From contig JBDGQO010000013.1 in assembly GCA_042219045.1 (NCBI GenBank), forward strand, positions 17,348 through 81,347: 64,000 nt of DNA, given 5' to 3'. The notes beneath the pieces are model-generated. The model saw nothing but the letters and a program-made list of their open reading frames with translations, had not been told where the DNA came from and made no database searches. Made by a program: the position numbers and the translations under genes. Below are positions 7,668-12,364 of the stretch, one piece after another. Position 1 is the first letter of the stretch. Every line of letters starts with the position of its first letter. This stretch comes from Candidatus Bipolaricaulia bacterium. Lineage in GTDB: Bacteria; Bipolaricaulota; Bipolaricaulia; RBG-16-55-9.

Positions 7668-9425
7668 TCACGCGTCGAGGAGATAGATCGATTCGGCGTA
7701 GTAGCGGATCTTTCCCTGGCGATTCTTCTCCAAGAGCTGCTCGTGGAGCCAGCGGTTCTTTTCGTGCAACGGCGCCTCGCGGGTAAGCGGGTCGATCTCG
7801 ATGTCGGCGTGCAGCACGCGCTCGGGGATGATGAAGCGGGTGATGCCCGCTGGGAAGCGCCGCCCGGCTTGGGCCGCCTGTAGCACCTGAGAGACGGTGT
7901 ATTCGGGGAAGACCACCACCGCCGCCATGTCCGGATACTGATGGGCCAAACGGATTCGATCGCTCTCCAGGGTGCGCGAGACCGTGGTCTGCTCGATGTA
8001 GGCCTGCGTCAGCTCGTTGAGGGCCTCGATCCAGTCCGCGCCGGGCTTGGGGTCGACCGCGTAGCGATCGCCATCGACGGACTCCACGATGCACAGCCCG
8101 CCGTAGGCGAGCAGCTCCCTCGGCGTCGCGTCCGGGTCGTCGGACGGCGGTGGCTCGATCTTCGTCTGCTTCAGGTCGCTTAGCTCATCGATCAGCTCGG
8201 TCGGCTCCACGTTCTGGATGACGTGATGCCAGGTGCCGAGCTCCAAACCCGCGTCCGGCGAGGTCACCTGAACGACGATGTCCCGGAAGCCGAGCTCTTG
8301 GAACGCCGCCACGCGCGTCGCCCCGTCCAGGACGATGTTGCCGTGCTCGGCCTCGGCCACGACTGGCGGGTTGCGCAGCACGCGATCCTCTTGGAGGCGC
8401 TTGGCCATGCGATCGACCCGCCTCGGGTCAACGTGCTCGTGGGGATGGACTTCGGCTAGCGGCACCACCTGTAGAGGGAGGATGCCTTGGGGCTCCATGC
8501 TGCCGAGCCGGTCGATGATCGCTTCGGCGACGGTGGTGGCGGCAGCCCGTTGGGCGTCCTCCGTGCTGGCGGCGATATGGGGCGTGGCGATGACCCGCTC
8601 GTGCTGGACCAAGGCACTGTCGGTGGGCGGCTCCTCGTTGAAGACGTCGAGCGCCGCGCCGGCGATCTCATCGGTGTTGAGAGCTTCCAGCAGCGCGTTT
8701 TCGTCGACGACGCCGCCTCGGGCGGTGTTGATCAGATAGGCGGTCGACTTCATGCGGGCGAGTTCCTCGGCCCCGATGAGGCCGCGCGTTTCGTCGTTGA
8801 GCGGCACGTGGATGGAGACGAAGTCAGAATGCTCCAACAGTGCCGTCAGGTCAACCGGCTCGATGTTGGCCTCGAGGTCGAGCTCGGGCGTCGCGCGACG
8901 CTGGTTGGCCACCACCCGCATCCCGAACGCCTCGGCACGGATGGCGACTTGGCGACCGATGCGGCCGAAACCGACGATGCCGAGGGTCTTGCCGGCCAGC
9001 CCTGCCCCCAACAGTTGCTTCTTCGCCCACTTGCCGGATTTGAGGCTGACGTCCGCCCGAGGCAGCCGTCGGGCAACCGCGAGCATCAGCCCCATGGCAT
9101 GTTCGGCGACGGCCAGCGTGTTGGCGTCGGGACTGTTGACGACGTCGATGCCGTGGTCCTTGGCAGCGGCGACGTCGATGTTGTCCAAGCCCGCCCCGGC
9201 CCGCGCGATCACCTTCAAGTTGAGCCCGTGCTCGATGACGTCTCGGGTCACTTGGGTGCCGCTGCGCACGATGATCGCCTCGTAGTCGGGAATGACGGTC
9301 AGCAGTTCGTCGTCGGACAGTCCGGTCTGAACGTCGACGTCCGTGTGCTCGCGCAACATCTCGACGCCGGCGTCGTCAATCGGATCGCAGATTAGCACCC
9401 GGGGATGCCGGGACTCCGAACTCAT
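7668..9425 (-). CDS. serA: D-3-phosphoglycerate dehydrogenase fused to a C-terminal SbnI/SerK-like (ParB/Srx fold) serine kinase domain
   Basis: ATG 9425 after SD AAGGAGG. N-terminal PGDH motifs RAGAGLDNID, GIVGFGRIG, INTARGG, LDVFNEEP, TPHIAAST. C-terminal about 270 aa has VHPHEH, LRNPP, LDGATR, TWHH, PAGITRF, RYYAESIYL. Confidence 0.88.
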   Translation of the reverse strand: MSSESRHPRVLICDPIDDAGVEMLREHTDVDVQTGLSDDELLTVIPDYEAIIVRSGTQVTRDVIEHGLNLKVIARAGAGLDNIDVAAAKDHGIDVVNSPDANTLAVAEHAMGLMLAVARRLPRADVSLKSGKWAKKQLLGAGLAGKTLGIVGFGRIGRQVAIRAEAFGMRVVANQRRATPELDLEANIEPVDLTALLEHSDFVSIHVPLNDETRGLIGAEELARMKSTAYLINTARGGVVDENALLEALNTDEIAGAALDVFNEEPPTDSALVQHERVIATPHIAASTEDAQRAAATTVAEAIIDRLGSMEPQGILPLQVVPLAEVHPHEHVDPRRVDRMAKRLQEDRVLRNPPVVAEAEHGNIVLDGATRVAAFQELGFRDIVVQVTSPDAGLELGTWHHVIQNVEPTELIDELSDLKQTKIEPPPSDDPDATPRELLAYGGLCIVESVDGDRYAVDPKPGADWIEALNELTQAYIEQTTVSRTLESDRIRLAHQYPDMAAVVVFPEYTVSQVLQAAQAGRRFPAGITRFIIPERVLHADIEIDPLTREAPLHEKNRWLHEQLLEKNRQGKIRYYAESIYLLDA

Positions 9426-9480
9426 CTCTTCCTCCTTTCCATCCTTTCCATCGATCGAACGATGGCGAGCGTCGAGTCGA

Positions 9481-10569
9481 TCAGCCCCATCTCGCCTGGA
9501 AATCGGACATGAACGCCACCAGCGCCTGGACAGACTCCCAGGGCACGGCGTTGTAGAGCGAAGCGCGAACGCCACCGACCGAGCGATACCCCTTGAGGCC
9601 GATCAGGCCCGCCTGGGCGCTCTCCTCGAGGAAACGGGCCTCGAGGTCCGTGGAGGGGAGTCGGAACGTGACGTTCATGCGGGACCGACTCTCGGGCTGG
9701 GCGTGCCCTTGGTAGAAGCCCTCGGAGCTGTCGATGGCGTCGTAAAGCAACTCGGCTTTGCGCCGATTGCGCTCGGCTTGCGCGGTCAGGCCGCCCCGCT
9801 CAGCCAAATCTCGAGCGACCAAGCCGACGACGCGGATGGGAAAGACCGGCGGCGTGTTCAGCATGGAGTTTTTCTCGTGGAGCGTCGCGTAGCTGAGCAT
9901 GTCCGGCAGCGTCGCCGGGACGCGCGCCAACAGCGACGTCCGCACCAGCACGATCGTCACGCCGGCCGGTCCCGCGTTCTTCTGGGCGCTGGCATAGATC
10001 AGATTGAACGGCGAAGGGTCCAGCGGTCGACTCAGAAAATCCGACGTCATGTCGGCGATCAGCGGGACATTAGCGGGTCGGGCATAAGTGGAGAACTGCG
10101 TGCCGGCGGTCGTATTGTTGGTCGTGATATGGACATAGGCGGCATCGGAGCTGGGCGGGAGCCCGCCCAAGTCGGGCACCCGGTCGTGGCCCGTGTCGGC
10201 GCTGGACCAGAGCTCGCGGGCCGTGCCGACCGTCTGGGCTTGGCTCAGCGCGGTCTCGCTCCACTTGCCCGTGACGACGTGCTCCGCGACGCCGTCCTCG
10301 GACAGCAGGTTCATCGGCGCGAGCGCGAACTGCGTCCGAGCGCCGCCGCCCATGAAGAGAATGGACCAGTCCTCGCCCAGGTCGAGAAGCGAGCGCAGGT
10401 GGGCGATCGCCTCGTTGTGGACCCGCTCGTATGCGTCGCTGCGGTGGCTGATCTCGAGGATGGACACGCCGGTTCCGTCGAAGTCACTGAGATCCTGCTG
10501 GGCTTGCTCGAGCACCGGTCGGGGCAGCGCCGCCGGGCCAGGATAGAAGTTGTGAACGTGGGTTGTCAT
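9481..10569 (-). CDS. serC: Phosphoserine aminotransferase
   Basis: NFYPGPAALP, EISHRS, ADMTSD, PLP lysine in AQKNAGPAG, NTPP, RASLYNA. Confidence 0.95.
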   Translation of the reverse strand: MTTHVHNFYPGPAALPRPVLEQAQQDLSDFDGTGVSILEISHRSDAYERVHNEAIAHLRSLLDLGEDWSILFMGGGARTQFALAPMNLLSEDGVAEHVVTGKWSETALSQAQTVGTARELWSSADTGHDRVPDLGGLPPSSDAAYVHITTNNTTAGTQFSTYARPANVPLIADMTSDFLSRPLDPSPFNLIYASAQKNAGPAGVTIVLVRTSLLARVPATLPDMLSYATLHEKNSMLNTPPVFPIRVVGLVARDLAERGGLTAQAERNRRKAELLYDAIDSSEGFYQGHAQPESRSRMNVTFRLPSTDLEARFLEESAQAGLIGLKGYRSVGGVRASLYNAVPWESVQALVAFMSDFQARWG

Positions 10570-10881: not shown

Positions 10882-10978
10882 TTTTGGCGGTCAATCAAGA
10901 TCATTTATTCAATTATCGACGCCATCGACAATTGAGGCGTATATGGATCTTGATCGTCCAAAATATCTATGGTAAGAT
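10882..10978. promoter_or_regulatory. Long imperfect inverted repeat overlapping the glyA promoter in the serC/glyA divergent region
   Basis: Core TCAATTATCGA-cgcca-TCGACAATTGA (10909-10935); outer arms ATCAAGATC/GATCTTGAT and TTTTGG/CCAAAA; plus-strand TTGATC(10950)-17 nt-TAAGAT(10973) with TG extension. Confidence 0.55.
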
Positions 10979-11074
10979 TCGCCTTCAAATCGTGGGCATG
11001 GGACGGATCGTCGGTCATCATGGAGTCCCGAGCGATCCGGAAACGGCTTGCCAACGGTGGAAGGAGGGTCCGTC

Positions 11075-12364
11075 GTGTTCCGCGCGAACATGGAAGTGGC
11101 CGGCTTCGACGACGAGCTTGCGGAAGCGCTGGAGGGCGAGCGAGGTCGCCAGGAGACGCACATCGAGCTGATCGCCTCGGAGAACTATGCCAGCCCGCGC
11201 GTGCTGGAGGCCCAAGGGACCGTTCTCACCAACAAGTACGCCGAAGGGTATCCGGGCAAGCGCTACTACGGCGGCTGCGAGCACGTCGATGTGGCGGAAC
11301 AGCTCGCCATCGACCGGGCCAAGGAGCTCTTCGGGGCCGACTACGCCAACGTCCAGCCGCATTCGGGGTCACAGGCCAATGCGGCGGTCTACTTCGCCCT
11401 GGCGGCGCCGGGCGAGACGATCCTCGGCATGAGCCTCGACCACGGCGGGCACCTCACGCACGGCGCAAAGCCCAACTTCTCCGGCAAGTTCTACAACGCG
11501 GTTCAGTATGGCCTCGACCCGGACACGGGCGAGATTGACTACGACCAAGTCGAGCGGTTGGCACACGACCATCAACCGTCGATCGTTATTGCGGGATTCT
11601 CGGCGTACTCGCGCATCGTCGATTGGGCGAGCTTCCGCGAGATCGCCGATGCTGTCGGGGCCTACCTCGTCGTCGACATGGCCCACGTGGCCGGATTGAT
11701 CGCGGCCGGCGTCTATCCCAATCCGATTCCGCATGCCGACGTCGTCACGACGACGACGCACAAGACGCTGCGCGGACCGCGCGGCGGCTTGATCCTGGCT
11801 CGGGAGAACCCGGAGATCACGAAGAAGCTCCAGTCGCTCGTCTTCCCCGGCACCCAGGGCGGGCCGCTGATGCACGTCATCGCCGCCAAGGCCGTCGCGC
11901 TCAAGGAGGCGCTCCAGCCGGAATTCGTCGATTACCAGAAGCAAGTGGTGGCCAACGCCAGCGCGATGGCCGAGACCGTCATGGAGCGCGGCTACAACGT
12001 CGTGAGTGGCGGCACAGACGACCAACTCTTTCTGATCGACCTGATCGACAGCGGAGTCACGGGCAAGGCGGCCGATGCGGCGCTCGAACGCGCTCACATC
12101 ACCGTCAACAAGAACGCTGTGCCCGGCGACCCGCAGCCGCCCTCGATTTCATCGGGACTGCGCATCGGAACGCCGGCGATCACCACGCGCGGCTTCCGGG
12201 AGGCCGAGAGCCGCGAGCTGGCCCACTGGATGTGCGATATCCTTGACGATGTCGAGGACGAGGCGACGATCGAGCGTGTCCGGTCTCAAGTGACCGATCT
12301 CTGTCGTCGCTTTCCGGTCTATGAGATGGCACAGCCGCAAGTATCGGAAAGCGTCGCCACCTAG
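11075..12364 (+). CDS. glyA: Serine hydroxymethyltransferase
   Basis: [48 protein letters not shown]; GTG 11075 follows SD AAGGAGG. Confidence 0.98.

Follow-up and report, generated by a model that had tools for sequence, protein, structure and literature searches.

A short D-3-phosphoglycerate dehydrogenase fused to an SbnI/SerK-like domain beside serC and glyA in a Candidatus Bipolaricaulia genome, and its possible role in serine assimilation

The window analyzed here is a stretch of 64,000 nucleotides from a Candidatus Bipolaricaulia bacterium (assembly GCA_042219045.1, contig JBDGQO010000013.1, positions 17,348 to 81,347 of the forward strand). Its subject is a gene that joins the core of a D-3-phosphoglycerate dehydrogenase (PGDH, SerA) to a domain related to SbnI and SerK, which are kinases of free L-serine. 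An initial annotation, made from the letters alone, had described the gene as a SerA fused to a free-serine kinase and had proposed that, together with serC and glyA, it forms a phosphoserine pathway running in reverse. As claimed there, serC lies directly upstream of the fusion (55 bp), glyA is divergent, and no serB is present in the locus. The features are as follows (positions are those of the window):

7668..9425, minus strand: fusion gene for 585 aa and a stop codon; SerA (PGDH) core followed by an SbnI/SerK-like domain
8490..9425, minus strand: PGDH core, residues 1-312; short (type III-like) D-3-phosphoglycerate dehydrogenase
7671..8489, minus strand: SbnI/SerK-type domain, residues 313-585 (about 316-585 by match); ParB/sulfiredoxin (Srx) fold, free-serine-kinase-like
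9426..9480, minus strand: spacer between serC and the fusion, 55 bp; holds the ribosome-binding site and borders on the serC stop TGA at 9481-9483
9481..10569, minus strand: serC, phosphoserine transaminase, 362 aa; directly upstream of the fusion
11048..12364, plus strand: glyA, serine hydroxymethyltransferase (SHMT); divergent from serC; Pfam SHMT 563.6 bits

The two halves of the fusion protein

The longest open frame of the fusion in the list of open reading frames (ORFs) of the window runs over 7668..9575 on the minus strand. Since the further-upstream part of this frame overlaps the end of serC, the start is probably the ATG at 9425, which is preceded at a distance of 7 nt by GGAGG. No terminator-like site was reported for the 55-bp spacer. 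The domain junction lies near 8489 and is bridged by contigs from runs of other studies: contig X6 (record 9) spans 7600-9039 with 2 differences and is ungapped at the junction, contig X7 (record 19) spans 7628-10071, which includes the whole fusion ORF, with 27 differences and no gap, and contig X9 (record 26) spans 8400-8590, again with an ungapped junction. A near-identical contig of the fusion region comes from a run labelled salt lake metagenome and an about 1% divergent one from a soil metagenome; the runs listed include no RNA run. An assembly artefact as origin of the fusion is ruled out by these independent bridging contigs and by the 74 fused genes among 80 related loci described below.

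The N-terminal half carries the Pfam domains PF00389 (2-Hacid_dh) and PF02826 (2-Hacid_dh_C) on residues 10-308. The top NCBIfam match of the fusion is TIGR01327 (PGDH) with 381.9 bits, followed by glyoxylate reductase with 266 bits, whereby the PGDH score stays below the equivalog cutoff of 454. Residues 9-308 match model positions 1-302 of 525 and thus the fusion has no ASB or ACT domain, so that the earlier description of a complete PGDH core followed by about 270 residues in the place of ASB/ACT is correct. In an alignment of fused proteins, the window protein keeps GFGRIG, the anion site Arg54-Ser55, and the triad Arg236/Glu265/His283; the Arg/Glu/His triad, GxGxxG, and the Arg-Ser site are what we take to be the catalytic and binding residues of the PGDH family. 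Judged by sequence, the N-terminal half of the window protein is an active-looking short PGDH.

For the C-terminal 273 aa no Pfam family was found even at an E-value of 10, PF06245 included. The NCBIfam model of SbnI (NF033589) is matched at positions 8-253 of 254 with an E-value of 7.6e-21, which corresponds to 74.6 bits against an equivalog cutoff of 350. The SerK model (NF053625) yielded 20 bits against a cutoff of 380, and only its first ~85 positions were matched. As the scores are far under both equivalog cutoffs, the domain is a homologue, and the equivalog of neither SbnI nor SerK. A phmmer search against the PDB sequences recovered SbnI end to end (6nr6_A with an E-value of 2.8e-15 over 8-253 of 254; 5ujd_A with 5.5e-15), and a profile from 36 homologues reached 4.7e-41 for SbnI and 5.1e-12 for the Thermococcus SerK. 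An AlphaFold2 model of the domain has a mean local confidence (pLDDT) of 90.9. Foldseek with this model returned SbnI first (5ujd_A, E-value 3.6e-18, TM-scores 0.75/0.80) and SerK after it (5x0b, E-value 2.5e-14, TM-scores 0.69/0.77). Ranks 1-9 consist of SbnI, SerK, and 1vk1 with 239-280 aligned columns, whereas the sulfiredoxin and ParB matches comprise 74-118 columns only. The predicted structure contains the two-lobed SbnI/SerK fold, which goes beyond the ParB/Srx core of ~80 residues.

The motifs quoted in the initial annotation (VPLAEVHPHEH, RMAKRLQEDRVLRNPP, VLDGATR, TWHH, PAGITRF, RVLH, and RYYAESIYL) are all present in the translation. Glu330 (in HPHEH; codon 8436-8438) aligns with Glu20 of SbnI and Glu30 of SerK, Asp367 (in LDGATR; codon 8325-8327) aligns with Asp58 of SbnI, and a PAG(I/V)TRF motif is common to SbnI and the window domain. 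The kinase activity of SbnI requires Glu20 and Asp58, as stated in PMC9641203 with reference to Verstraete 2018. SerK entries titled E30A and E30Q among the PDB structures are, by their titles only, an indication of a role of Glu30. By sequence comparison and structure prediction, the C-terminal half is homologous over its full length to SbnI and, at a greater distance, to SerK; the end-to-end pattern described in the initial annotation was borne out by phmmer, profile, and Foldseek, all of which rank SbnI first. We infer from homology, fold, and residues that the domain phosphorylates free L-serine to O-phosphoserine (OPS), with ATP or ADP as possible donor. In a model of the full-length protein (pLDDT 89.0) both halves are well folded, and the predicted TM-score (pTM) of the whole is 0.54.

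Spread and conservation of the fused family

A search of 5.8 billion proteins, covering lengths of 321-1024 aa, gave 351 matches at E<=1e-3. Among the 120 matches listed of these 351, 115 have both dehydrogenase domains at a length of ~560-612 aa, and the other five are shorter proteins with the NAD-binding domain alone. Where the matches are named, they are called ‘NAD(P)-dependent oxidoreductase’ or ‘hypothetical protein’ and belong to metagenome-assembled genomes (MAGs) of Chloroflexota. In a survey of loci with one genome per GTDB species, a relative was encoded in 354 of 374 candidate stretches, and the best 80 were kept. The gene is fused in 74 of these best 80 loci, namely in 73 with the PGDH core in frame directly upstream and in L066, where PGDH residues 279-305 stand at the contig edge and which was counted as fused; it is standalone in five, and L094 could not be judged. 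According to the record titles, the best 80 loci belong mostly to Chloroflexota (Anaerolineae, Caldilineaceae, Promineifilaceae, Ardenticatenaceae, and Leptofilum) and also include Acidimicrobiia, three Desulfobacterales, and one MAG labelled Cellvibrionaceae. Within the phylum of the window, the fusion was found in 3 of 184 species genomes, which are G000, its congener G098, and G091 from another family of the same order.

The kinase-like domain itself forms a family of 943 representatives at E<=1e-3. Among the best 150 of the representatives at 50% identity, 112 have a length of 240-310 aa and 18 are full fusions. In a FastTree phylogeny without outgroup, 23 of 25 fused rows group in a single clade that comprises 57 rows and has a local support of 99%, whereby representatives with a match of <230 query residues were left out and rows counted as ‘alone’ may include gene fragments. 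The PGDH core of the window is 55-71% identical to most other fused cores, mainly to those with an intact triad (33-80% over all fused loci), but shares no more than 37-47% identity with its own paralogues and the short PGDHs of the phylum. Since the core is thus closer to other fused cores than to the PGDHs of its own phylum, the fused gene seems to have travelled as a unit. Two further architectures were noticed. Five of the best 150 representatives (P0123, P0127, P0128, P0130, and P0162; 389-399 aa, possibly miscalled fragments) keep only the first ~100-120 PGDH residues, followed by the SbnI-like domain, and lack the NAD-binding domain. P0151 (910 aa) is a triple fusion of a pyridoxal-phosphate (PLP) domain, a PGDH-like domain, and an SbnI-like domain, whose PLP domain resembles threo-3-hydroxyaspartate ammonia-lyase, Ser/Thr dehydratase, or racemase and is not of the CysK/SbnA type; frames of 915-923 aa in G237, G318, and G379 from the Chloroflexota class sample described below may share this architecture.

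Nine residues of the kinase domain (His329, Glu330, Asp367, Gly368, Arg371, Trp399, His401, Thr529, and Arg530) show no variation across all 55 aligned fused proteins or across all 69 full-length fused ORFs taken from the loci, the latter a count in which 8 of 77 fusion-cluster ORFs were left out for being <500 aa. The catalytic Glu and Asp, which had been noted as apparently conserved, are among them. The PGDH triad is intact in 29/55 and 45/69 of the fused proteins and degenerate in 26/55 and 24/69. Eleven loci from Leptofilum, Promineifilaceae, and Ardenticatenaceae have Arg-Ala-Arg in place of the triad together with a lost Arg-Ser anion site; other degenerate triads read Ser-Asp-Ser, Tyr-Asp-His, and more, and the Arg-Ser site is mostly lost there as well. 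The glycines that bind NAD remain in 51-54 of 55. Proteins and loci with a degenerate triad are P0112, P0037, P0040, P0082, P0027, P0044, and P0061 as well as L025, L028, L029, L035, L037, L038, L043-L046, L050, and L088. Thus, the fusion does not always stand for two catalytic steps, and since the residues of the kinase half are invariant while the PGDH triad is often lost, what stays constant in the family is the activity of the kinase-like half. In the members with a degenerate triad, the dehydrogenase half is, going by these residues, probably a pseudoenzyme.

It might be that the pairing is regulatory, either with an SbnI-like sensor for serine or nucleotide that replaces ASB/ACT or with the PGDH-like half as an NAD(H)/3-phosphoglycerate (3-PG) sensor or scaffold for the kinase. 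The decayed triads with their retained NAD-binding glycines would fit such a pairing, as would the five representatives with only the first part of the PGDH and the fact that the two fused activities are non-consecutive steps of the pathway. However, both active sites are intact in the window protein, the full-length model offers no confident interface between the halves, and none of the aligned fused proteins deviates at the catalytic residues of the kinase, which speaks for catalysis and not for binding alone. We therefore consider a purely regulatory pairing highly improbable.

Gene context and direction of the pathway

The neighbors of the fusion suggest a route in which the module carries glycine and serine carbon to 3-PG, i.e., in the assimilatory direction, and we assign a probability of about 0.5 to this reading. 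GlyA would condense glycine and methylene-tetrahydrofolate (THF) to serine, the kinase half would convert serine to OPS, SerC would use OPS and 2-oxoglutarate to give phosphohydroxypyruvate and glutamate, and the PGDH half would reduce phosphohydroxypyruvate with NADH to 3-PG, which is its thermodynamically favored direction. Glycine and methylene-THF would likely derive from the oxidative demethylation of dimethylglycine or sarcosine by an enzyme with the domains DAO, FAO_M, and GCV_T that works with electron-transfer flavoprotein (ETF). The module might then take the place of the glyA1-sdaB genes of known betaine clusters and yield 3-PG instead of pyruvate. Because no other convincing SerA was found in this genome, the forward reaction from 3-PG to OPS may also be carried out by the PGDH half and SerC if the need arises.

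What favors the assimilatory reading is the dimethylglycine/sarcosine-dehydrogenase (DMGDH)-ETF context, the second glyA, and the canonical SerA kept in other fusion genomes. In G091, the fusion shares 4 bp with the end of an ORF that contains ETF alpha and is itself preceded by a DAO+FAO_M+GCV_T+GCV_T_C gene; by its domains, this gene has the DMGDH architecture. Of the 184 genomes of the phylum, four carry FAO_M, namely all three fusion genomes (G000, G098, and G091) and G052. The window’s own genome, which is 89% complete, carries on another contig (C69:1-12000, L121) a row of a GntR/FCD regulator, an 838-aa DMGDH-type gene (DAO+FAO_M+GCV_T+GCV_T_C), ETF beta, and ETF alpha, with a gene similar to methylene-THF reductase and a formate-THF ligase gene near this row, within 12 kb. 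The glyA of the window is a second copy, and its 57%-identical paralogue on contig C33 is adjoined by housekeeping genes (rho, an EPSP-synthase-family gene, and an HflX-like GTPase gene). Elsewhere, in the Desulfobacterales locus L088, which is one of those with a degenerate triad, an 883-aa GCV_T+SHMT-like protein (2387-5038, plus strand) ends 3 bp before the fusion, and in the Desulfobacterales locus L081 an SHMT-matching ORF (25-1161, plus strand) lies directly upstream of it, cut by the contig end so that its N-terminal part is unseen. We know of no description of a joining of a GcvT-type aminomethyltransferase domain to an SHMT-like domain such as that in L088, although no literature search aimed at it was made. 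Peptide ABC permease genes lie directly upstream in three scanned loci, two of which (L051 and L093) belong to Caldilineaceae. The dehydratase/racemase-like PLP domain of the triple fusion P0151 likewise points to the catabolism of glycine- and serine-yielding substrates. The canonical full-length SerA (525-aa type, 601-654 bits) stands beside the fusion in five of five other fusion genomes tested, and G091 has a separate pair of serC and short serA in addition to the fusion. As a canonical SerA or a serC-serA pair is kept, the fusion in these genomes is an extra and not the housekeeping enzyme.

Two signs of reversal put forward in the initial annotation did not hold. The loss of the ACT domain carries no such meaning here, since a full-length ACT-bearing PGDH was found in 0 of 184 genomes of the phylum, where short forms of ~305 aa are the rule. 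Likewise, a recognizable SerB is often missing in the family, whether or not a genome carries the fusion: SerB scores over its cutoff in 1 of 35 genomes of the window’s order, and no recognizable SerB was found in family members without the fusion either, so that the SerB gap is not tied to the fusion. The reversed route as such gained the DMGDH-ETF row of G091, the co-occurrence with FAO_M, and the second glyA, and its direction is what we infer from them. Of the proposed supply from glycine betaine in a halophile, the part from dimethylglycine and sarcosine onwards and the salt-lake origin of one contig stood, and for the entry step two of the following searches found no gene.

Several observations weigh against the assimilatory reading. 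G000 and G098 belong to one genus, so that the co-occurrence of FAO_M and the fusion rests on two lineages, and in the window’s own genome the DMGDH-ETF row and the fusion are on separate contigs. The searches for betaine uptake and first demethylation covered BCCT transporters (PF02028) and MttB-type betaine methyltransferases (PF06253), neither of which was found in this genome; ABC-type uptake systems, BHMT, and the Rieske protein GbcA lay outside their scope. Across the best 80 loci there is no conserved neighbor; the commonest neighbor family occurs in 13 of 80, and the top Pfam family among 64 same-strand, operon-like partners has five members. The survey across genomes confirmed the fusion, and among the best 80 loci the same-genus locus is the sole one in which serC and glyA adjoin it. 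From the Chloroflexota class to which G184 belongs, a sample of 201 genomes (overlap counts by hand, the same 201 being assumed) contained an SbnI-like homologue in 61, of which 18 were fused and 43 standalone (280-396-aa frames), and FAO_M was not enriched with the fused form (1/18 versus 21/201 overall). It was present in 12/43 genomes with the standalone form, in 13/61 with any homologue, and in 8/140 without a homologue, a difference that genome size may confound. The genome also encodes a PLP-dependent Ser/Thr-dehydratase-like enzyme that could deaminate serine. No Fe-S serine dehydratase, whose part the fusion and SerC would take over, was found in it, but this enzyme is useless as a discriminator, since none of 6 genomes yielded it, be it one with the fusion or DMGDH or one lacking them. 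The fused steps being non-consecutive, the absence of a confident placement of the two halves relative to each other, and the degenerate triads count on the same side, as does the serine metabolism of the genome. The fusion is its best PGDH (382 bits versus 270 and 281 for the paralogues, one of which lies, by reading of its genes, in a sugar-acid-like cluster), it adjoins the only serC found in the genome (by tblastn; TIGR01364 447.9 bits, cutoff 443.6), and no SerB scores over the cutoff, the best match being an MtnX-like HAD-IB protein with 30 bits.

These last findings would suit a biosynthetic enzyme with a built-in substitute for SerB, in which the PGDH half and SerC make OPS and the SbnI-like half removes the phosphate, either as a phosphatase or as a kinase working backwards or onto another acceptor, as proposed for SerBK; the locus would then serve ordinary serine and glycine synthesis. 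In line with this, no DUF1015 (PF06245) protein was found in the genome either, and the fusion takes the place of the short serA that follows serC in family f4. According to PMC13759103, SerBK, which is structurally a remote relative of SbnI and whose gene accompanies serA and serC, can complement a serB mutant of E. coli. As SerBK rescues serB and the fusion is the best SerA beside the only serC, a biosynthetic role has to be reckoned with. On the other hand, members of the same family that have no fusion also have no recognizable SerB, and the other fusion genomes, with their canonical SerA, include one with a clear SerB (252 bits) and two with a SerB-like HAD gene ~0.5-1.3 kb from the canonical SerA. 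G091 carries the fusion in addition to its serC-serA pair, the gene contexts observed point to catabolism, and a serine kinase in reverse is thermodynamically unfavorable, with an equilibrium constant of 4e-4 given in PMC13759103. Overall, we regard the role of a SerB substitute as unlikely.

A third possibility would be that both halves make OPS as an end product, from 3-PG via SerC or from serine, for an OPS sulfhydrylase or an SbnA-like enzyme. Both SbnI, in staphyloferrin B synthesis, and SerK, in the cysteine synthesis of Thermococcus (PMC5120207), provide a PLP enzyme with OPS, the kinase half stays unchanged at its invariant residues also in proteins with a decayed PGDH half, and in the window’s own genome no cysE was found while one CysK/CBS-like gene is present. 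This gene lies on contig C40 (L007, L102), where CBS/CysK-like and cystathionine gamma-synthase/lyase-family genes were seen close to an adenosylhomocysteinase gene; going by these genes, cysteine is probably made by reverse transsulfuration. Since the CysK/CBS-like gene in such a setting would use serine rather than OPS, a role of OPS in cysteine synthesis is weakened. Furthermore, no OPS-using gene recurs among the 64 operon-like partners, and the PLP domain of the triple fusion P0151 is of the dehydratase/racemase type. The supply of OPS as an end product thus appears very unlikely.

Beyond this locus, the assimilatory reading could be widened to a widespread, unannotated bacterial route from serine via OPS to 3-PG, in which about one third of the family would carry the dehydrogenase as a pseudoenzyme with a sensor or scaffold function; we put this forward tentatively and hold it to be somewhat doubtful. 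The sources of serine would be glycine and methylene-THF, methylated amines (dimethylglycine, sarcosine), or peptides, and the route would parallel, in phosphorylated form, the branch of the serine cycle that leads from serine to glycerate, without passing through pyruvate and phosphoenolpyruvate synthesis.

As to the remaining parts of the window, the listed frame of glyA starts with TTG at 11048, and the likelier start is an ATG 14 codons in (~11090). The divergent spacer between serC and glyA (10570-11089) is unusually long with ~480-520 bp, and a comparison with the same-genus locus showed no clear conserved block in it. No riboswitch or other Rfam element was found in 7300-11300 at E<=1, and the whole window has one tRNA. 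On the 3' side of glyA, cytochrome c biogenesis-like genes (12518-16446) were recognized by eye from the translations only:

13188-14102: CcsA-like gene, by eye from the translation
14099-16084: ResB-like gene, by eye from the translation
15748-16446: thioredoxin-like gene, by eye from the translation

Significance and comparison with known systems

To our knowledge, the free-serine kinases comprise only two experimentally studied proteins, SbnI and SerK, in addition to the proposed SerBK. The data presented here show a large bacterial family of direct SbnI homologues with a well-defined PGDH-fused subgroup. The enzymes and a pathway proposal were known; new are the widespread and unannotated fused architecture, the link to dimethylglycine and sarcosine, and the decay of one half. 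The active-site decay of the PGDH in part of the family presents a clean natural case of an enzyme half that turns into a pseudoenzyme. If the predicted kinase activity is true, tools for pathway reconstruction would gain a serine-to-3-PG route, a defined link to central metabolism would be added to the catabolism of dimethylglycine and sarcosine in some halophiles, and a tractable relative would be at hand for the thermodynamic puzzle raised over SerBK. In line with the initial annotation, our literature searches listed no paper that describes a SerA-kinase fusion; a survey of ParB-fold proteins names no dehydrogenase partner in its main text, and its supplements may list one (PMC12704722).

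The closest known protein is SbnI from Staphylococcus (PDB 5ujd, 5uje, and 6nr6), which phosphorylates free L-serine and regulates the synthesis of staphyloferrin B in response to heme. The window domain shares with it end-to-end homology, the best structural match, the residues corresponding to Glu20 and Asp58, and the PAG(I/V)TRF motif. It differs from it by an identity of only ~22-23% in the structural alignment, by its fusion to PGDH, and by lying in no siderophore cluster. With regard to the DNA and heme binding of SbnI, the likeness extends to sequence and fold only. SerK from Thermococcus kodakarensis (PDB 5x0b), an ADP-dependent free serine kinase, has the same fold with Glu30 aligned, but the identity is ~15%, the NCBIfam SerK model was matched over the N-terminal ~85 residues, and the archaeal genes are separate and unfused. 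A route from serine via OPS to 3-PG through SerK, an aminotransferase, and SerA has been proposed for Thermococcus, and in Desulfurococcales serK adjoins genes for PGDH and an aminotransferase (PMC5120207; PMC11032457). Makino et al. reported no clear SerK homologues in bacteria (PMC5120207).

SerBK, a DUF1015 protein of C. difficile, C. botulinum (CBO1128), and B. thetaiotaomicron (BT1151), was described in GapMind 2026 and is proposed to serve both the synthesis and the utilization of serine through OPS, with an OPS route for Bacteroides (PMC13759103). It resembles the system presented here in that an SbnI-related, kinase-like protein is encoded with serA and serC. However, SerBK is a separate protein of ~400 aa and a remote structural relative of SbnI, whereas the window domain is a direct sequence homologue of SbnI; a membership of the window domain in DUF1015/SerBK is ruled out, as there is no PF06245 match in the domain or in the genome. 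The betaine catabolic clusters of Pseudomonas and Vibrio carry a dedicated glyA1 and the serine dehydratase gene sdaB (PMC12093977). They have in common with the window a second SHMT and an enzyme that disposes of serine, which here would be the extra glyA with serC and the fusion. The exit proposed here, in contrast, is 3-PG through OPS, and demethylation would rely on an enzyme of the DAO-FAO_M-GCV_T type with ETF instead of dgcAB/soxBDAG. Finally, the fusion and the short (type III-like) PGDHs have the core of ~305 residues without ASB/ACT in common, to which the window protein adds a kinase-type C-terminal domain of 270 aa.

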